Below, in pieces: positions 16,699-24,593 of a stretch of DNA of 29,510 nt (its first letter is position 1; each line of letters opens with the position of its first letter). The stretch is from an uncultured Oligoflexia bacterium (lineage in GTDB: Bacteria > Bdellovibrionota > UBA1018 > CAZQUK01), in assembly GCA_964596435.1 (NCBI GenBank), contig CAZQUK010000004.1, positions 1-29,510 of the forward strand. Reading direction: 5' to 3'. The notes beneath the pieces are model-generated. The model searched no databases. It was not told where the DNA came from and saw only the letters and a program-made list of their open reading frames with translations. Made by a program: the position numbers and the translations under genes.

Positions 16699-16721
16699 AA
16701 AAATTTTTGGAGGAAACTAAA

Positions 16722-17852
16722 ATGGCACATGCCTACACACCTGGTTTAAGAGTAGCTGAAAAAACCAAGATAAAAAAATGCAGAATATTACCGCTTAAGG
16801 GCAATGTAATAAAAAAAGTTGGTGACGTGGTACTGCGCAATGATGTGGTTGCAAGAACAGAACTTCCCGGCGGAATTTCCACAATGAACGTTGTGAATAT
16901 GCTGGGTATTGTACCAAATGAGATTGATAACTTTATGCTTAAAAAGGTTGGTGAAAAAATTGAAAAAGATGAGGTTATTGCGGAAACCAAATCATTTATA
17001 AAATTTCTGCGCGCAAGGGTACAATCATCAATAACCGGGACAATTGAAGCAATCTCCCCGGTAACCGGGCAAGTACTGCTTCGCGAACCACCACTTCCGG
17101 TTGAGGTAATGGCCTACATTAACGGAAAAGTTGTTGAAGTTATAGATGGCGAGGGTGTGGAAATTGAAACAGAGGCAACTTTTATACAGGGAATTTTTGG
17201 TGTTGGTGGTGAGGTATGGGGATCAATGAAGTTTGCAGTTTCCGGCCCTGATGAGCGCTTAACTTTGGATAAATTAAAACCAGAGTTTAAGGATTCAATT
17301 GTAGTGGGTGGTTCTTTTGCTGGATTTGATGTTATAAAAAAAGCAATAGCTCTTGGAGTACGTGGCTTGATTGTATCTGGTATTCATGATGAAGATTTAA
17401 GAAAAATCCTTGGCTACGATCTAGGTGTTGCCATAACAGGTACAGAAAATATCGGATTAACACTTGTTTTAACCGAAGGGTTTGGCGAAATTACAATGGC
17501 CGAAAGGACCTACCGGACACTTAAGTCCAGAGAAGGAAGTGTTGCGTCGATTTCCGGTGCTACGCAAATCAGAGCTGGTGTGATACGGCCCGAAATAATT
17601 ATTCCATTCGATGAGGGTAAAGTACAAAAGCAGGAAAAAGATCAAAGCAAACAGCCCCATAGTATGCAAATTGGTGATCAGATTAGAGTTATTCGCGATC
17701 CTTATTTTGGAATAATTGGTAAAGTACATGCCCTGCCGTCTGAACTTAGAAAAATTGAATCAGAAACGCGGGCCAGGATTTTAGAAGTGGAATTTCCTGA
17801 CGGAAAGATTGCCGTTATTCCACGCGCAAATATAGAACTTATTGAAGAATAA
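16722..17852 (+). CDS. Conserved hypothetical partner of the GlmL-like protein: barrel-sandwich hybrid repeats, central alpha/beta domain, C-terminal KOW/SH3-like domain
   Basis: GGAGG RBS at 16709-16713 favours ATG 16722. KKVGEKIEKDEVIAE...QSSITGTIEAI resembles RnfC_N/NqrA_N; MQIGDQIRVIRDPYFGIIGKV is KOW-like. Confidence 0.8.
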   Translation: MAHAYTPGLRVAEKTKIKKCRILPLKGNVIKKVGDVVLRNDVVARTELPGGISTMNVVNMLGIVPNEIDNFMLKKVGEKIEKDEVIAETKSFIKFLRARVQSSITGTIEAISPVTGQVLLREPPLPVEVMAYINGKVVEVIDGEGVEIETEATFIQGIFGVGGEVWGSMKFAVSGPDERLTLDKLKPEFKDSIVVGGSFAGFDVIKKAIALGVRGLIVSGIHDEDLRKILGYDLGVAITGTENIGLTLVLTEGFGEITMAERTYRTLKSREGSVASISGATQIRAGVIRPEIIIPFDEGKVQKQEKDQSKQPHSMQIGDQIRVIRDPYFGIIGKVHALPSELRKIESETRARILEVEFPDGKIAVIPRANIELIEE

Positions 17853-17876: not shown

Positions 17877-18806
17877 GTGCAAAACAAAATAATATTTGAA
17901 ATAAAAAATAATTTAAGATTTTTATTATCTATAGTGCTTGTGGTTCTTTATCCGCTTTTTATAGCACTTATACAAATTGATTTTCGTGGTCTTGAGCATG
18001 CGCTGGTGCTTGCGTTTTTTTTAAGTGTACTAACATGTTTATGGCTTGTGTTTTCAGAAGTGGGGATTTTAAGAGTACTGGTGTCCATTGGTTTGGCACT
18101 TCTAGTTGTTTTTAATTATGATGCTACAGGTGCTTTAATCTCAAACTTAAAACTTGAGCACCTTGATTTGATTCTGGCAGATGTCGACAGAACGCTTTGG
18201 GGGTGGCTTTTCGCAAAAGGACAGATTTCATTTTGGTTAGATGGAAATTCCTGGTTGAATCCAAGCACTATGCCTGGAAAAATTCTTACAGAGATTTTTC
18301 AAATTGCTTATAGTAGCTATTATTTTTGGAGCCTGGGGTTGGTTTTTGCTCTTTGTGCGAAAACCTTATTTGGAGCAAAAAAGCAGGAAAGTTGGTCTGC
18401 GCTTAAACTTGTAATGAGTAGTTATTCCGTGGCTTATATTTTTAACTATATCGGATATATTTTGGTTCCTGCAGTTGGGCCAAGGCTAGTTTTTGAAAAT
18501 TATTACAAACATGCGCTTCAGGGTCTTTGGTTAACAATACCATTTAGAGAAATTATTATGAATAACCAAAGTACACTTGAGGATTGCTTTCCAAGCGGGC
18601 ACACGGCCATTAGCTGGTTAACTGCTATTATGTTTTTGCGTTTTTTTCCAAAAGTGGGCCGCATTGCGGTCGTTGCCGCAATTTTAATTACAATGGCAAC
18701 TTTGTATTTAAGGTATCACTACATTGTTGATTTAATCGCAGCCCTACCTTTAATTGTTCTGGCACTTTTGTGGGGTTTTGTGAAGGTGCCACAAATGGAT
18801 GAATAG
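17877..18806 (+). CDS. PAP2-superfamily membrane phosphatase/phosphotransferase (AUR1/IPT1-like subfamily)
   Basis: Multi-TM protein with PAVGPR, DCFPSGHT and YLRYHYIVD motifs. Confidence 0.85.
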   Translation: MQNKIIFEIKNNLRFLLSIVLVVLYPLFIALIQIDFRGLEHALVLAFFLSVLTCLWLVFSEVGILRVLVSIGLALLVVFNYDATGALISNLKLEHLDLILADVDRTLWGWLFAKGQISFWLDGNSWLNPSTMPGKILTEIFQIAYSSYYFWSLGLVFALCAKTLFGAKKQESWSALKLVMSSYSVAYIFNYIGYILVPAVGPRLVFENYYKHALQGLWLTIPFREIIMNNQSTLEDCFPSGHTAISWLTAIMFLRFFPKVGRIAVVAAILITMATLYLRYHYIVDLIAALPLIVLALLWGFVKVPQMDE

Positions 18807-18822
18807 TATTTGTTTTAGATCA

Positions 18823-19581
18823 TTACAAAAAAGTATCAATAAAAACTTTTGCGTCTTTTGGAATATTGTTTTGAAAATTTTGTGTAGTCCAGACAAAAAA
18901 TTGTTTAATTTCCTGTGTCTGTTGTGAATTTGGCTTTGTGTTAAGAATGTCAGCGCCTTGAATGTGATATGGGCTGAAATCATCATTTGTTAAATATATT
19001 TCAAGGAATTTTCGTTTTGCATTGCTTCTGATAACAAACTCATCGGTTGAAAATTCGAAATTGCATATATGGCCGTCAGCGTTTTTGCCTTTTGTATACC
19101 AGGTAATCAGTTTTGTATTATTATCACTTATATAAACCTCTTTTTTAAATCCGGCGTCGTCTTGATTAAAAAGTTTAGAAGAAAGTTTTTTTAGTGAAGA
19201 GCCTGTGATCACAGGCATTAATGTTTGAATGTAGTCTTTTTTAATGAGCCAGCTTGGAAAATATATATCAAACCCAATATCTGAAGATTTATCTTTTTTT
19301 CTTATATGTGCGCATCTGGCCTTTAAATGCAAATTATATTGTTGTAACTGCAAGGTTAAATTGGCAATAGATTCTTTGCCAAGCTCTTTTGGGTCTTTTA
19401 CATTTAACCTTAAGCCACCAATAGAAAAATCAAGTACTGAGCAGGAGTAGTTTGCGTTATTGGCAATTAGTGAAACGTTAAGCGGGTAAGTATTACATGG
19501 TTTGTAACGTATTGATTTGCGCCTCTCAAGGCTCTTGATTTCCGATTTTTCAAAATTTAGTATTTTTTTAAATAGTCCCAT
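18823..19581 (-). CDS. PilZ domain protein (c-di-GMP receptor candidate)
   Basis: RRKSIR (RxxxR) and DFSIGG (DxSxxG) motifs, followed by an uncharacterised C-terminal domain. Confidence 0.85.
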   Translation of the reverse strand: MGLFKKILNFEKSEIKSLERRKSIRYKPCNTYPLNVSLIANNANYSCSVLDFSIGGLRLNVKDPKELGKESIANLTLQLQQYNLHLKARCAHIRKKDKSSDIGFDIYFPSWLIKKDYIQTLMPVITGSSLKKLSSKLFNQDDAGFKKEVYISDNNTKLITWYTKGKNADGHICNFEFSTDEFVIRSNAKRKFLEIYLTNDDFSPYHIQGADILNTKPNSQQTQEIKQFFVWTTQNFQNNIPKDAKVFIDTFL

Positions 19582-19587
19582 TTATTA

Positions 19588-19615
19588 ATTTTAACAAAAG
19601 CTATAGGTTCTTGAA
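19588..19615 (-). promoter_or_regulatory. Possible promoter giving a leaderless PilZ mRNA
   Basis: Minus strand TTCAAG-N16-TAAAAT with extended TG; the -10 box ends 6 nt before the ATG; no SD sequence. Confidence 0.3.
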
Positions 19616-19761
19616 ACTAATTACAGTAAAAAAACATCAAAAATACTAAGCAAATTGTTATTAATTCGAATCAAATGACGCGTTAAATAAATCGAGTTGA
19701 GTTTTAGCACACTGCATCTTGTGCGCATTGGTGTGGTATATAATAGTGTGTATTAATACAG

Positions 19762-20571
19762 TTAAAAATTAATTTCCCCACAACTTATAAGCCGAGCTTT
19801 TCCTGAAAGATAGGCAGCTGCTTTTGGGCCTTCCCATTCAACTATAACTTTGCCACCGGGTTGAATAACTGTGACCGGCGAAATAATATTTTTTATTAAA
19901 ATTGATGCTATGGCACTGGCACAGGCACCTGTGCCGCATGCTTTAGTGAAGCCCACACCTCTTTCCCAGGTTTCAATTGAAATAGAGTTGTTATTTAAAA
20001 CTTTTACAAAATCAATGTTTGTTTTTTTATGAAAGTTTTTGTGGTTTTCAATTATTAGAGTGCACTTTTTAAGGAAATTTGTGTTTGTTTCGTTTTCAAA
20101 AAAAACTGCATGCGGAACACCCGTATTAATAAAAACATAAGCAAATAAATTAGAATTCAGTGCAAGCGTACTTGTGATACTTTGTTTATCGTATTTTGGT
20201 TTTCCAATACCGACGCGTATTGTGTTATCAGATAACATGTCTGATTTTATACGGCCAGAAAGAGTTTCGGTAATAAATTCTTTTTTTCCTTCTACAAACT
20301 GACTAAGGTAAAGAGTGGATGCAATAATTCCATTTCCACACATTTCTGCAATTGTTCCATCGGCATTAATAATACCAAGTTTAGCGTTTGAGCCTTTGGT
20401 CTTTGGTTTTTGAAGAATTAATATCTGGTCTGCACCAACGCCATCTGTTTTGTTACAAATTGATTTTGTTACTATGGGATCAATTTTGAACGAATTTGCA
20501 AAATAAGTATTGTCAATCAAAATGAATTCGTTGCCATAAACATCAAGTTTTGTGTATTTAAGTAAAGCCAT
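19762..20571 (-). CDS. dapF: Diaminopimelate epimerase
   Basis: GNEF, GADQIL, NADGTIAEMCGNG, TGVPH and TWERGVGFTKACGTGA; both catalytic Cys present; N-terminus divergent. Confidence 0.88.
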   Translation of the reverse strand: MALLKYTKLDVYGNEFILIDNTYFANSFKIDPIVTKSICNKTDGVGADQILILQKPKTKGSNAKLGIINADGTIAEMCGNGIIASTLYLSQFVEGKKEFITETLSGRIKSDMLSDNTIRVGIGKPKYDKQSITSTLALNSNLFAYVFINTGVPHAVFFENETNTNFLKKCTLIIENHKNFHKKTNIDFVKVLNNNSISIETWERGVGFTKACGTGACASAIASILIKNIISPVTVIQPGGKVIVEWEGPKAAAYLSGKARLISCGEINF

Positions 20572-20589
20572 GAAAATCCACTTATATCC

Positions 20590-20868
20590 TTAATTTTCCA
20601 GTTCTTCAATTTTATTCAGCAGGTAGTCAACATACCTTTTGTCTTCCATGGCTTCTCTGAATGCTTGCAGTTTTTCCCCACTTATTAAAATAGTTAAAAA
20701 TGGTTCAAAAAAAAGCATGGATTGGCTGCCTAAATAATGAAGTGGCCTTGTGCTTTCTAAAAACATTACCGCAATAACAGATAAGCCTTTTTTTACGATA
20801 AAACCGGCAATTTTATCTAATATTTCAGTTTTTTTTGTATCAAGTATGTCGCACTCGGGGTTATTCAT
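20590..20868 (-). CDS. Small conserved hypothetical protein of the DUF6754-like operon
   Basis: 92 aa; FLESTRPLHYLGSQSMLFFEPF motif; overlaps upstream gene by 8 nt. Confidence 0.75.
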   Translation of the reverse strand: MNNPECDILDTKKTEILDKIAGFIVKKGLSVIAVMFLESTRPLHYLGSQSMLFFEPFLTILISGEKLQAFREAMEDKRYVDYLLNKIEELEN

Positions 20869-21265
20869 TTTTGGTCCTTGCTATTAAAAAATCATGGATT
20901 TCATTTTTAAGATTACTATTAAATATATATATGTATTCGCAAGCTTTATTGGATTTTTTAATAGGTAATATGCCGTCACTTCCAAGAGTGAAAAGCTTGT
21001 AATCAGAGTAATAAAAACATTTTTCTGTTAATAATATTTTTATTAAATAACGATCTTCAAAAAACAAATAGCGAGAAGGAACTAAAAAGTTGACAACGGG
21101 CATGGCCATCACTAAAAGTGCAATAATTGATAAAATAATTGAACCCAAAAGATATTGTGCAAGAAATGTAACAAATAAAATAACCAAAACCGAAAAAACA
21201 CCTTTTTTCCAGTAATGAGTTAAAGGAAAAGAGCTTACTTCGTAAAGTGGCACATCATCCGGCAT
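20861..21265 (-). CDS. Small 2-TM protein with C-terminal beta-rich (PH-like) soluble domain
   Basis: Two hydrophobic helices then FLVPSRYLFFEDRYLIK; coupled to neighbours; very AT-rich. Confidence 0.65.
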   Translation of the reverse strand: MPDDVPLYEVSSFPLTHYWKKGVFSVLVILFVTFLAQYLLGSIILSIIALLVMAMPVVNFLVPSRYLFFEDRYLIKILLTEKCFYYSDYKLFTLGSDGILPIKKSNKACEYIYIFNSNLKNEIHDFLIARTKNE

Positions 21266-21283: not shown

Positions 21284-21898
21284 TTAAGTAATAACACCAA
21301 GCCAGTCTTTTAATAAATACAACACCCTTCCAATTAAAAGTGAAATACGCGCCATGACTGTATAACCAAAGCTTGCACCAAAACTAATCATCAGAAGTGT
21401 TGATCCAAACTTTGTAAAATGGCCAATAACGCCTTTATGCGGTATTGAAAAATAAAAATACAAAAGACAGGCAAATGTTCCTACCAAAATAATTAAGCTG
21501 CTTAAAATGCTAAACCAGCCTCCACCAAGTGGAACGTTTACTGTTGCTTGCACCTGCGTAAGTAAATAAGTATCAATCATGGTAGGGATGCCATAACCAC
21601 TAAAACCCACAAGAAAAGCAAGTGGCCAGAAGCTTATCCAACCAAGTTTGCTTGAAAACCTAAAGAGCATTAAAATTGCTAAAATCGCCGGAATAATAAC
21701 ACTATACTCGCCCTTCGTTAAGGGTTCAAAAAGTTTTGGTAGTAGAACCTCGTTCCATGTTAAGCAAATCAAGTAACCGACAGAAATACCAATAAAGATA
21801 TGTTCCGCAAGTCTATAAAGAGGGTTTTCTTTCCAAAGGTATGTAAAAATTGCGATAGTTAATATTGCGCCTATCCAAATCCAGGGATCTGTACTCAT
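21284..21898 (-). CDS. Uncharacterised ~6-TM membrane protein with internal repeat
   Basis: 204 aa hydrophobic; KENPLYRLAEHIFIGISVGY and MISFGASFGYTVMARISLLIGR motifs; 1-nt gap to upstream gene. Confidence 0.85.
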   Translation of the reverse strand: MSTDPWIWIGAILTIAIFTYLWKENPLYRLAEHIFIGISVGYLICLTWNEVLLPKLFEPLTKGEYSVIIPAILAILMLFRFSSKLGWISFWPLAFLVGFSGYGIPTMIDTYLLTQVQATVNVPLGGGWFSILSSLIILVGTFACLLYFYFSIPHKGVIGHFTKFGSTLLMISFGASFGYTVMARISLLIGRVLYLLKDWLGVIT

Positions 21899-21899
21899 G

Positions 21900-22760
21900 T
21901 TAGAACCCCTTTCTTTCTGTTGCTTCTATATGCCTACGTATATAAAAAAGGATGTTTCCAATGACTATAAAAATAATAATTATAATGTGGCCCCAGTTTT
22001 GAGAGGCCATGCCTCGCATTGCGTTTCCAATAAAACCAGTTAAATATTCATATTCCGCGGCAGCTTTCATGCCCGCAAGAAGCCCCTTCATTTGTCCGGC
22101 CTGAAGATATGGAAAATATTCTGTTGCAGATACTGCTGTAACACCCGCAACGTAGTTAAATTTATATTTGTTAACACCATAAAGTATATATGCTTGCGCA
22201 AGTTTTGTTCCGGTAATGCATATTACAACATGAAAATCATCATAGTTTTGAATACCCTTAAGGACAGGAATATCTGCAATTGGGATCCCCCTAAAATCTT
22301 TGGGGTAGGATAATCTTAGGTCGTCCCCGAGGTTAAGTAGAACTATGTCGTATTGTGGTAGGTAGCCCAGAAAAACATAATCCTGGCCGTTAACTTTACC
22401 AAATTCTTTGGCCATATCATCCATAATGGTTGCGGCCAGAGCGGTACCGTTTGGTAAAAAAGTAAGCCCCACAACCTTTACGTTTTGCGAAAACGCTTGC
22501 CTTAACATAGCTTTTGCCATTGGTTGAAGTTCGGCTAGTGTTGAAGGGTCAAAATCAAAACCAATTAATATAGGTTTCCTTTTTTTTGCGGCCTCTTCAA
22601 CAAGTTCATAAGCTGTTTTTACCCACTTGGTTGATTTTATACTTACAACAGGTTTTAGAAAGAAAGGCAGACTAACTGCCAGGAACATGAAAATATAAAC
22701 AACCCTTCTGTCTAGGTTGATTATTTTGGTAACCAAAGAATTTGTTTTTTTATTATCCAT
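21900..22760 (-). CDS. Uncharacterised protein: TM, alpha/beta domain, TM (apparent paralog of the DUF6754-like domain)
   Basis: 286 aa; FDFDPSTLAELQPM, YVFLGY and GLLAGMKAAAEYE motifs; terminal hydrophobic helices. Confidence 0.85.
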   Translation of the reverse strand: MDNKKTNSLVTKIINLDRRVVYIFMFLAVSLPFFLKPVVSIKSTKWVKTAYELVEEAAKKRKPILIGFDFDPSTLAELQPMAKAMLRQAFSQNVKVVGLTFLPNGTALAATIMDDMAKEFGKVNGQDYVFLGYLPQYDIVLLNLGDDLRLSYPKDFRGIPIADIPVLKGIQNYDDFHVVICITGTKLAQAYILYGVNKYKFNYVAGVTAVSATEYFPYLQAGQMKGLLAGMKAAAEYEYLTGFIGNAMRGMASQNWGHIIIIIFIVIGNILFYIRRHIEATERKGF

Positions 22761-22782: not shown

Positions 22783-23418
22783 TTATTTTCCAACACCACT
22801 GAAAACTGATTTATCAATTCCAAGAATAATTTTAAGTGCCGTTGCAACCGATCCTATTGCAATACCAATAAGGATGGCTCGTTGTGCGGCAACATTAGGA
22901 TAGTCCATTATCCAAGCCGAAAATTTAGGAATCAAAGGTGATATAGTTTCTCCGAAAGGAACCTGTGCAAGCATTACGGTAATTGCAGCAAACAAGAGTA
23001 AACCTGCGGAGAAAGATTTTAACCTAAAACTTCTAAATGCGGCAGATGCGATATAAAAAGCCAGAAGTGAGAACATTGTGGATTCAAGTGGTGCCATAAC
23101 GTTCATAAAAATATCATTAAAAAGTGTTCCGGGGTTCATGCCTGTAATAAAACCAACTATTGTCATTATGGCCATAGAAATAATTGTGATTAAGCAGTAA
23201 AACCTATTTGGGTCAGCTTTGTTCATGGCTTTTTTGTAATAGGTTTTAATCATACTTATTACACCAACAGCCATTGCACCACCACCGATGATGATTAACC
23301 AATCGGAATATGTTATCCATAAAAAGTTCATGGATTTGTGTGGAACAAAATAAGCAGCAAAAGTAAAAATACCTACCACTAAGGTTATTAAAAAAGGTAC
23401 CGTCTTTTTAAAAAACAT
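22783..23418 (-). CDS. Uncharacterised ~6-TM membrane protein
   Basis: 211 aa hydrophobic; PLESTMFSLLAFYIASAAFRSFR and PNVAAQRAILIG motifs; TAATG stop/start overlap with upstream gene. Confidence 0.85.
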   Translation of the reverse strand: MFFKKTVPFLITLVVGIFTFAAYFVPHKSMNFLWITYSDWLIIIGGGAMAVGVISMIKTYYKKAMNKADPNRFYCLITIISMAIMTIVGFITGMNPGTLFNDIFMNVMAPLESTMFSLLAFYIASAAFRSFRLKSFSAGLLLFAAITVMLAQVPFGETISPLIPKFSAWIMDYPNVAAQRAILIGIAIGSVATALKIILGIDKSVFSGVGK

Positions 23419-24593
23419 TAATTAGCTCCTCCAGTTAAAAATGTATCCATACCTTCTACACCAAAAAGTTTAAGCAAGAAGCAAATAAGCAGCGCAATCA
23501 TGACCACAAGTTTTACGTAGTCTTGCCCCTTTAAGCCACCAAGCAGGCTTTTATCATCTCCCATGTAGGCTCCAGCAGCGTATAACTCCTCACCAATAAG
23601 TGTGTAGTCGCATGCAACAATAAAAAATGGTATTTGACTCACAGAATCGGTTCCTGCAATTTGTATTGCGCCTGTCATTGCACCAGATTCTGCCAAAATA
23701 AGACTTTCAGCCATAAACCAGCCAAGAAAAAAGTTTGCAGCTGGTTTTTCTCTGGCCATAAGACCCGCAACACCTGAAGCATATGCAAACTGACGGCTTG
23801 TTAGATAATATACATCATCTGCTCTATAAGCGTCAGGACGCCCCATTTTTAGGTATGAGTTTTTAACAACTTCATCAACTACTGAATAAACAATTGGGTC
23901 AAAATTTGGGATAATCATGCGTGAATTATATTCAGCAATTGTTTCAGAAACTTTTGATAAAATTGAAATTGAAGCCAGTGTTGCAATATCCGTAATTGTA
24001 CTTATTCCTGGTACAAAAATGCATGGCTTTCCCATTTCTGTTGCACGTCCAACGGCCTCCTCAATTGCTTTAACTCCGGGCAGTGGGCGGATATATAGTT
24101 TTCGTCCTGTTTTTGCTATCTGTATAAACACTAGGATTATAAACATAGAGATAAACGAAAAGACTAAAGTGAAAATTTTTGTGGAATTGAACCACTGTGG
24201 TTTGGAAACAAAAGGACCAAACTGGTTTGTCTCAAAGATTGTTTTTTCGTTTTCATCCTTAAACACAAGTTTGTAAAAGTATGGAGTTTTGTCTATTACG
24301 TCATTTTTATCTGTGTATTTATTATTTGAAATGTCGAGTCTTTTAATTTCAAGAAATTTAGTGTCGGCCGTGGTTTTGCGGAACACAAAAATATTCAGAC
24401 TTTTTTCTATTATGCTCTGATCTTCAATGTTCCATGAAATATCAATCGAAGCACCCTTGTCGTTTGGTGTGTCTTTTCCTTCAAGAGTGATTTTAGTATC
24501 CGCTCTTGAGAAAACAGAAAACAAGATCAAAAAAACCACGCCTATTAAATTAACAACTCGAAATTTATGGGATTTTTTCATGATGAAAACCAT
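23418..24593 (-). CDS. Signal peptide, Fn3-like domain, TM, DUF6754-like domain, TM
   Basis: DTPNDKGASIDISW...YFYKL (Fn3-like); IRPLPGVKAIEEAVGRATEMG and LIGEELYAAGAY. DUF number is from recall. Alternative start ATG 24581. Confidence 0.82.
   Translation of the reverse strand: MVFIMKKSHKFRVVNLIGVVFLILFSVFSRADTKITLEGKDTPNDKGASIDISWNIEDQSIIEKSLNIFVFRKTTADTKFLEIKRLDISNNKYTDKNDVIDKTPYFYKLVFKDENEKTIFETNQFGPFVSKPQWFNSTKIFTLVFSFISMFIILVFIQIAKTGRKLYIRPLPGVKAIEEAVGRATEMGKPCIFVPGISTITDIATLASISILSKVSETIAEYNSRMIIPNFDPIVYSVVDEVVKNSYLKMGRPDAYRADDVYYLTSRQFAYASGVAGLMAREKPAANFFLGWFMAESLILAESGAMTGAIQIAGTDSVSQIPFFIVACDYTLIGEELYAAGAYMGDDKSLLGGLKGQDYVKLVVMIALLICFLLKLFGVEGMDTFLTGGAN

Follow-up and report, generated by a model that had tools for sequence, protein, structure and literature searches.

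A predicted swivelling-domain protein is the adjacent and frequently fused partner of a GlmL-like actin-fold ATPase in bacteria

A stretch of 29,510 nucleotides from an uncultured Oligoflexia bacterium (contig CAZQUK010000004.1 of assembly GCA_964596435.1; hereafter the window) encodes a GlmL/MutL-family ATPase of 603 aa (PF13941; 14887..16698, + strand; Pfam E 7.6e-128), followed on the same strand by a gene of 376 codons (16722-17852). Here we show that the product of the second gene, the partner protein, and the GlmL-like ATPase make up one unit, as their genes are adjacent, frequently fused and co-inherited. At the genomic level the unit belongs to an eight-gene module that also contains five membrane proteins. 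We favor, with moderate confidence, the reading that the partner protein is an obligate, cofactor-free cytoplasmic partner subunit of the GlmL-like actin-fold (ASKHA) ATPase, working within this module by the mechanism proposed below.

The tie to the ATPase was examined in 80 partner loci fetched from one-genome-per-species contigs of more than 12 phyla. The ATPase gene lies directly upstream of the partner gene in 63 of the 80 loci, and four of five genomes with an unlinked partner gene (Poribacteria, WOR-3 and others) have the ATPase at another place. In addition, the two proteins occur as a single chain. Two ATPase-partner fusions surfaced in an exhaustive phmmer search and were confirmed with Pfam, and among 113 longer proteins from a word-indexed search nearly all have PF13941 N-terminal to the partner region. 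About 50 fusions are close relatives of 990-1020 aa from Neomarinimicrobiota (Tara samples included) and Planctomycetota, and about 60 are distant, with 27-36% identity, from Cloacimonadota, Fermentibacteria, Delongbacteria, Edwardsbacteria and WOR-3. A single frame of ~1015-1020 aa also covers ATPase and partner in genomes of Synergistia and Elusimicrobia. An initial annotation, made by reading the sequence without database searches, had tied the partner protein to a GlmL-like ATPase, and the adjacency, the more than 100 fusion clusters and the model of a fused chain bear this out.

That model, an AlphaFold2 prediction of the 1003-aa fusion P0272 built on an alignment of 94 natural fusions, has a pLDDT of 83.7 and a pTM of 0.84, and its pLDDT falls below 50 only at residues 396-412, in the linker at 609-621 and at the chain termini. 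Since a pTM of 0.84 for a chain of 1003 residues indicates a confident relative placement of its two halves, the ATPase and partner halves are predicted to pack together. The initial annotation had staked its reading on barrel-sandwich hybrid (BSH) folds and on an interface with the ATPase; the BSH folds are present in the model, and the interface is indicated only indirectly, by the pTM. The ATPase is probably catalytically active, because its phosphate-binding motifs DxGSTTTK and GGATTD are invariant in 94 of 94 fusions. In a structural search against representatives (VIA), the ATPase half of P0272 best matches FtsA and PilM (Z 12.4-13.8, rmsd 6-9 Å), and its best Foldseek matches are subunits of ATP-dependent hydantoinase and of acetone and acetophenone carboxylases. 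FtsA and PilM, both of the actin fold, dock on bitopic membrane proteins, and the arrangement here resembles pilM-pilN in that small genes with hydrophobic segments (m92 and m134, described below) adjoin the ATPase gene; however, PilM and FtsA have no BSH/swivel/KOW partner, and no pilus or divisome genes are associated with the pair. DdrA was rejected as a template for the ATPase-plus-swivel arrangement, as it aligns with the ATPase half only (P0272 residues 13-479, Z 11.5).

Other parts of the ATPase chain were also noted. A flavodoxin/REC-like insert occupies P0272 residues ~103-254 (Z ~10 to a flavodiiron flavodoxin and to receiver domains), and residues ~489-600 form an all-beta C-terminal extension that closes with a helix and corresponds to the ~120-aa extension of the window ATPase past the Pfam MutL model. 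Some distant fusions have an extra N-terminal domain, such as a Cro/C1-type HTH_3 in P0352 and a Zn_ribbon_2 in P0332.

An AlphaFold2 model of the partner protein alone was built with an alignment of 82 diverse homologs, which also provided all conservation counts given here (pLDDT 92.9, pTM 0.79). VIA and Foldseek searches with this model resolved four pieces, and the model shows two nested BSH units, a swivelling beta/beta/alpha domain, a flexible linker and a KOW/SH3 barrel. The first half of the outer BSH (residues ~10-48; 16749..16865, + strand as for all pieces) carries an L23-P24 motif and the invariant residues R21 and G27. It is followed by the inner, RnfC_N/NqrA_N-like BSH (residues 49-123; 16866..17090), the second half of the outer BSH (residues 124-151; 17091..17174), a region that the domain HMM also recovers in paralogs, and the swivelling domain (residues 152-296; 17175..17609). 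A charged, poorly conserved linker without conserved columns (residues 297-313; 17610..17660), in which the pLDDT drops to ~52 at residues 301-310, leads to the KOW/SH3-like barrel (residues 314-376; 17661..17849), which contains the invariant N370 and E372.

The only Pfam match of the partner protein is RnfC_N at residues 75-115, with 20.1 bits against a cut-off of 25.6 (E 6.7e-4). Among the 82 homologs at E<=0.01, RnfC_N was matched in 36, Biotin_lipoyl in 31, NQRA_N in nine and KOW in eight, and RnfC_N exceeds its curated cut-off in the relatives P0178, P0257 and P0352; judged from these sequences, the RnfC_N signal is not a chance one at the family level. In VIA, residues 49-123 align with RnfC (8ahx_C; Z 7.8, rmsd 2.6, 64 aa) and residues 49/51-123 with NqrA (4u9o_A; Z 7.7, rmsd 2.2, 64 aa). 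The flanking segments behave differently from the inner unit: residues 16/18 to 149/150, less the inner unit, align as one BSH with the biotin carboxyl carrier protein (BCCP) 2d5d (Z 7.7), HlyD 5c21 and the DUF2118 protein 3d4r (Z 7.2-7.7 overall). Because residues ~16-48 and 124-150 align jointly as one BSH, the inner unit is placed as an insertion at the outer hairpin tip. HlyD-type proteins carry their helical hairpin at the corresponding position of the BSH. The three segments from which up to three BSH units had been read in the initial annotation are all present in the protein (residues 24-45, 73-111 and 127-149), and the likeness of the second to RnfC and NqrA was correct; the count was not, since the first and third segments are halves of one outer BSH and the second is the inner one, which makes two nested units.

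The swivelling domain is most similar in VIA to PTS enzyme I (2wqd_A, Z 9.2) and rifampin phosphotransferase (5hv1_A, Z 9.1), followed by RraA (3c8o_A, Z 8.8, 126 aa, 14% identity) and the small subunit of aconitase X (7cnr_B, Z 8.2), with 107-126 aa aligned in the swivel matches overall. The middle region thus has the swivelling or RraA-like fold suggested earlier, and at the sequence level RraA was reached only by a profile-versus-PDB match at E 0.62 and no Pfam match was obtained. The conserved loops of this domain are Q156-GIFGxGG-E164, T239-GxE242, T251-EGFG255 and G279-ATQIRAGVxRPE291. The TEGFG loop is judged to lie at a strand-to-helix turn matching the phospho-His site of PEP-utilising swivel domains. 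The C-terminal KOW tail, also foreseen in the initial annotation, matches NusG (1m1g_A, Z 8.5), NdhS (6hum_S, Z 8.1), Spt5 and PsaE in VIA, and several NusG/Spt5 chains were found with a Foldseek probability of 1.00. A five-stranded barrel is common to residues 314-376, the KOW domains of NusG and Spt5, NdhS, PsaE and PetP (Z 7.2-8.5, rmsd 1.1-2.3).

The partner family is large and strongly conserved. The word-indexed search returned at least 8000 clusters of ~375 aa with 57-70% identity to the partner protein, from Planctomycetota, Oligoflexia, Kiritimatiellia, Nitrospirota and other groups, and phmmer, run exhaustively over 1.84 billion representatives, returned 2433 clusters (at 50% identity) at E<=1e-3. 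Identity is 51-60% to homologs from more than 12 other phyla and up to 70% to the closest relatives. The homologs are annotated as hypothetical throughout, apart from one mislabelled as a biotin carboxyl carrier protein. No Pfam or NCBIfam family for the protein was found in library searches, sequence and profile searches of the PDB gave marginal matches only (KOW, BSH and RraA at E 0.62) and no solved structure, a search of the ESM Atlas gave the protein's own family only, and no description of the protein or of the module was found in the literature.

In the alignment of 82 homologs, R21, G27, G135, Q156, G160, G167, G253, G255, R284, G286, R289, P290, N370 and E372 are invariant, and T239, E242, T251, E252, T281, Q282 and E291 are nearly so. 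The most conserved sites of the protein are the swivel loops TGxE, TEGFG and TQIRAGVxRP. The residues T239/G240/E242, T251/E252/G253/F254 and T281/Q282/R284/G286/R289/P290 are invariant or nearly invariant in the close family, and so are their counterparts in the 94 fusions, paralogs of 30% identity included. These polar, Gly-rich loops look like a functional site, and they probably lie at strand-to-helix turns, positions that commonly bind a phosphate or a partner surface. The initial annotation had described the protein as a docking arm; a purely passive arm is probably too weak a description, because the swivel loops stay invariant even in the paralogs of 30% identity.

The protein appears to work without a cofactor of its own. 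It has one Cys and four His residues, none of which is conserved, and in the 82 homologs all His, Cys and Lys columns stay below 60%. This conservation pattern makes FeS, flavin, biotin/lipoyl or phospho-His chemistry unlikely, in agreement with the earlier statement that FeS and flavin motifs are missing and the protein is free of redox cofactors; mapping conservation for a catalytic His or Lys, which had been suggested as a check, returned no such column. The partner protein gave no Pfam match to Complex1_51K, SLBB or Fer4. No match to PEP-utilizers was obtained in the partner protein or among its 82 homologs, and no counterpart of the phospho-acceptor His of the GGxTSH motif is conserved in the 82 homologs.

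The wider module was defined from the gene order in the 80 loci and in the window. In the window, the first gene of the membrane operon encodes a DUF6754 membrane protein (23418..24593, - strand; Pfam E 1e-108). It is followed on the same strand by m211 (22783-23418), m286 (21900-22760) and m204 (21284-21898), which have predicted transmembrane (TM) segments and no Pfam family, by m134 (20861-21265), a 134-aa two-TM gene between m204 and m92, and by m92 (20590-20868), a small gene with one weakly hydrophobic segment. Among the 80 loci, DUF6754 follows the partner gene in 52, m211, m286 and m204 are syntenic in 47-51, and m92 is present in 51. On one strand, the order m92, ATPase, partner, DUF6754, m211, m286, m204 is found in about 50 of the 80 loci, from Nitrospirota, Planctomycetota, Latescibacterota, Zixibacteria, Gemmatimonadota, Eisenbacteria, Elusimicrobia, Synergistia, Dormibacterota and other phyla. 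In other genomes m92 and m134 precede the ATPase gene: m134 is homologous (E 5e-13) to a 146-aa gene just upstream of m92 in 19 of the 80 loci from several phyla, and because it matches this gene the module has eight genes, not seven. No further broadly recurring neighbour was found among the clustered flanking open reading frames of the 80 loci.

In the window the module is split into two convergent halves 2.7 kb apart, with the ATPase and partner genes on the + strand and DUF6754-m211-m286-m204-m134-m92 on the - strand. The closest module, from a Bdellovibrionales groundwater metagenome-assembled genome (MAG; L001, 60-76% identity), has the same convergent layout without intervening genes. 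Where DUF6754 does not adjoin the partner gene, it was found elsewhere in five of five genomes. The initial annotation had also tied the protein to a membrane core; synteny, joint presence and absence, and a paralogous system near DUF6754 (below) support this at the genomic level only. The membrane genes of the window match DUF6754 only or no Pfam family, even at E<=5, and no Rnf-Nqr family was matched.

Two lineage-specific features of the module were seen. In 20 loci, mostly of Nitrospirota (e.g. L026:14907-16157), m204 is followed on its strand by a Memo-like gene (PF01875), which may be a lineage-specific extension of the operon. The Zixibacteria genomes behind L015 and L039 (G239 and G240) have six and four DUF6754 matches, so DUF6754 has expanded there far beyond the single ATPase-partner pair of the fetched loci.

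The partner protein and DUF6754 are both present in the window's own genome, and each was found in 0 of 150 other genomes sampled from its phylum; the partner was found in 0 of 40 relatives from its order. Mis-binning of the contig was rejected, as it has the most typical tetranucleotide profile of 115 large contigs and a GC content equal to the genome mean. Since the partner and DUF6754 were not found in the sampled phylum mates while the composition of the contig is typical of the genome, the module is probably an old horizontal acquisition.

Paralogous fused systems indicate which parts of the unit persist. Among 61 genomes sampled from the phylum to which the Fermentibacteria genome of L023 belongs, the ATPase was found in 60, most of which have the unfused form together with a fused paralog. 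One paralog group (L093-L104, in G046, G096, G082 and other genomes) consists of proteins of ~920-945 aa with the ATPase, three BSH units and the swivel domain, and without KOW; these fusions lie directly after DUF6754-m211-m286-m204, and a second DUF6754 gene lies a few kb beyond. For a second KOW-less group (L105-L113), of ~960-990 aa, no genes of the membrane module lie within 8.5 kb. Domain HMMs place two inner-type BSH units inside the outer one in the paralogous fusions, which gives three units. The 20 fused paralogs examined all stop no more than a few residues past the swivel domain, without a KOW tail, and sensitive HMMs found no homolog of m92 or m134 in 21 loci of KOW-less paralogs. 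As a comparison, both m92 and m134 occur in the window and in three canonical loci (L023, L054 and L058), of which L054 and L058 read as KOW-bearing fusions. Taken together, these results point to BSH, swivel and ATPase as the persistent core, joined in one paralog group by DUF6754/m211/m286/m204, and KOW, m92 and m134 as an accessory set that varies together, which hints at an interaction between them.

In L107 (3784-8424, - strand), the one locus of this second group examined in detail, the fusion is followed by four paralogous proteins of ~230-247 aa with 66-79% mutual identity, each of which has a signal peptide or N-terminal hydrophobic segment and no Pfam family.

As for the gene itself, the ATG start at 16722 is 23 nt past the stop of the upstream ATPase gene, and a ribosome-binding site, GGAGGA (16710..16715, + strand), was read 6 nt 5' of it. 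A longer reading from TTG at 16707, offered by the open reading frame finder, is unlikely because GGAGGA precedes the ATG and the homologs begin at the same M..AYTPGL. The product, 376 aa followed by a stop, is predicted to be soluble, as a hydrophobic-segment scan found no hydrophobic or TM segment in it. The next gene downstream encodes a PAP2 phosphatase (+), which together with PilZ (-) and dapF (-) genes (17877-20571) parts the two halves of the module in the window only. These three genes were rejected as members of the module, as they are near the partner in 0 of 80 loci. The window locus is near nusA-infB-rbfA-truB. Four sequencing runs are listed as containing it, all of them DNA runs from a single groundwater study and none an RNA run.

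For the partner-subunit reading we propose the following mechanism. The BSH-plus-swivel core would be seated on the ATPase, and the swivel loops TGxE, TEGFG and TQIRAGVxRP would either bind a client or extend to its nucleotide site and act there, for example, as an arginine finger or a gamma-phosphate sensor. ATP binding and hydrolysis would then shift the swivel domain relative to the membrane subunits' cytoplasmic domains. On its tether, the KOW barrel would serve as an accessory docking module or second anchor, with m92 and m134 as its likeliest targets. In the glycerol/diol dehydratase reactivase, the alpha subunit contains an Hsp70-like ATPase domain and a swivelling domain, and binding of its partner is controlled by ATP hydrolysis (PMC7674605).

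Several points weigh against this proposal. The ATPase-partner interface is derived from the pTM only, and no solved chain spans both ATPase and partner. The link to the membrane proteins is a genomic one; a single sequence, P0271, has the partner joined to a DUF6754 N-terminus with a sensible topology, and since it ends mid-domain and may be an artefact it is given little weight. The L105-L113 group suggests that the ATPase-partner unit may work also without the membrane module. The co-variation of KOW, m92 and m134 comes from non-independent loci of one phylum and is a lead, not proof, and the placement of TEGFG at the phospho-His position follows the order of secondary-structure elements, without a residue-level structural alignment.

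The main rival, which we consider unlikely, is that the partner protein is a catalytic or phosphotransfer subunit: a residue or bound ligand of its swivel domain would be phosphorylated by the ASKHA protein, with T251/E252 or T281 in place of His, and the domain would swing to deliver the group, in the manner of PEP synthase, PPDK, PTS enzyme I and rifampin phosphotransferase. In fold, the middle domain is indeed closest to phospho-His swivel domains (2wqd and 5hv1), the invariant residues cluster in its Gly-rich polar loops and are kept across distant paralogs, and the hydantoinase and carboxylase subunits matched by the ATPase half phosphorylate their substrates. However, no His is conserved in the 82 homologs, and known swivel phosphocarriers have a conserved His and pair with ATP-grasp domains, whereas the energy partner here is an ASKHA ATPase. 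In addition, RraA, the small subunit of aconitase X and PA domains have the same fold without phosphotransfer, and a substrate-binding third domain is not evident. We regard as improbable the reading that the pair repairs or loads a soluble coenzyme-B12 enzyme, as DdrAB does for diol dehydratase and GlmL presumably does for glutamate mutase, the membrane genes being unrelated neighbours. The ATPase belongs to the same Pfam family as GlmL, DdrA matches its ATPase half, and in GdrAB/DdrAB and GlmL an Hsp70/actin-fold ATPase with a swivelling domain holds an exchangeable partner, the reactivase alpha subunits joining both in one chain (PMC7674605). In DdrA, however, the swivel is inserted in the ATPase chain, whereas here it is on a separate or C-terminally fused protein with BSH and KOW. 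The window ATPase is also far below the NCBIfam cut-offs for true GlmL and Or-4, Met_asp_mut_E was not found in its own genome (90% complete), no mutase, dehydratase or lyase is among the recurrent neighbours in the 80 loci, the B12 enzyme served by DdrAB and GlmL has no counterpart associated with the pair, and the partner co-varies with DUF6754 in presence and absence.

A role as a nucleic-acid or ribosome factor, in which the ATPase would be linked to translation or transcription by a KOW tail bound to RNA, a ribosomal protein or RNA polymerase, seems to us just as improbable as the B12 reading. The KOW fold on a flexible linker is NusG-like, the window locus is near translation genes, and HTH_3 occurs at the N-terminus of some distant fusions. 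However, NusG models reach 13.7 bits on the partner protein, on the KOW part only, against cut-offs of 135-150; an NGN domain was not found, the N-terminal 300 residues having other folds; translation genes are conserved neighbours in 0 of 80 loci, and no link to transcription or photosynthesis genes was seen. The same-fold SH3-like barrels of NdhS, PsaE and PetP are protein-docking subunits of membrane complexes, and the KOW tail is dispensable in paralogs. Still less credible is a swinging-arm carrier, with a BSH biotinylated, lipoylated or acylated at a hairpin lysine. The BSH fold is shared with biotinyl/lipoyl carriers (PF00364), the tip of the inner hairpin is a Lys in this protein (K90), and a lipoate-protein-ligase-like gene adjoins the module in eight loci (L016, L032, L049, L062, L077, L004, L059 and L074). 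However, the hairpin-tip Lys is not conserved (residue 90 is Lys in only 36 and Arg in 19 of the 82 homologs), and because residue 90 is Arg in six of the eight loci with the ligase-like neighbour, the partner protein is not a likely substrate of that ligase. The ligase mostly belongs, apparently, to a glycine-cleavage operon, and BSH lipoylation or biotinylation was rejected. In Eisenbacteria, Dormibacterota and related MAGs (at least five loci), the module is apparently wedged into this operon as gcvT-gcvH-gcvPA-gcvPB-[module]-lplA-like, an order deduced from the sizes and clustering of the genes rather than from Pfam; in Latescibacterota an LplA-like gene lies just upstream of the module. 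Least credible of all, and largely refuted, is a divergent Rnf/Nqr-type peripheral subunit of an ion-translocating redox complex. NqrA is a cofactor-free peripheral subunit, residues 49-123 share the small BSH fold and hairpin motif of the RnfC and NqrA N-terminal domains (PF13375 and PF05896), and the operon places a soluble subunit before several small membrane subunits. However, the alignment with RnfC and NqrA is limited to these residues, the BSH is nested in a second BSH, and BSH matches are equally common to biotinyl/lipoyl domains and HlyD-type proteins. RnfC and NqrA have an NADH/FMN Rossmann domain, SLBB and, in RnfC, FeS cysteines, which the partner protein lacks (it has no Complex1_51K, SLBB or Fer4 and a single non-conserved Cys), and the RnfD/NqrB- and RnfA/E-type membrane partners are absent here, DUF6754 being the only family matched by the membrane genes.

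Going beyond the partner-subunit reading, it is possible, though we hold this tentatively, that the pair is the energy-converting head of an undescribed class of envelope machine, in which an actin-fold ATPase would drive the membrane module through a swivel adaptor and fused paralogs would serve other clients. An actin-fold ATPase would then stand in place of an ABC, AAA+, P-type or rotary ATPase, with the swivel loops as the coupling or catalytic element.

What this analysis adds to the initial annotation is the domain-resolved structure with its nested BSH, the extent of fusion, the model of a fused chain, the KOW-less paralogs and the co-variation of KOW, m92 and m134. A widespread and highly conserved bacterial protein, for which no Pfam family, solved structure or paper was found, now reads as the obligate, frequently fused companion of a GlmL-like ATPase, with a defined domain plan and a short list of invariant residues. 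This corrects existing annotation, in which fused forms appear as glutamate mutase L and one relative appears as biotin carboxyl carrier protein. The module occurs in environmentally important groups, among them nitrite oxidisers, anammox bacteria, marine Marinimicrobia and the Poribacteria of sponges. If the link to the membrane proteins is true, the module would represent a new mode of coupling between ATP and a membrane complex.

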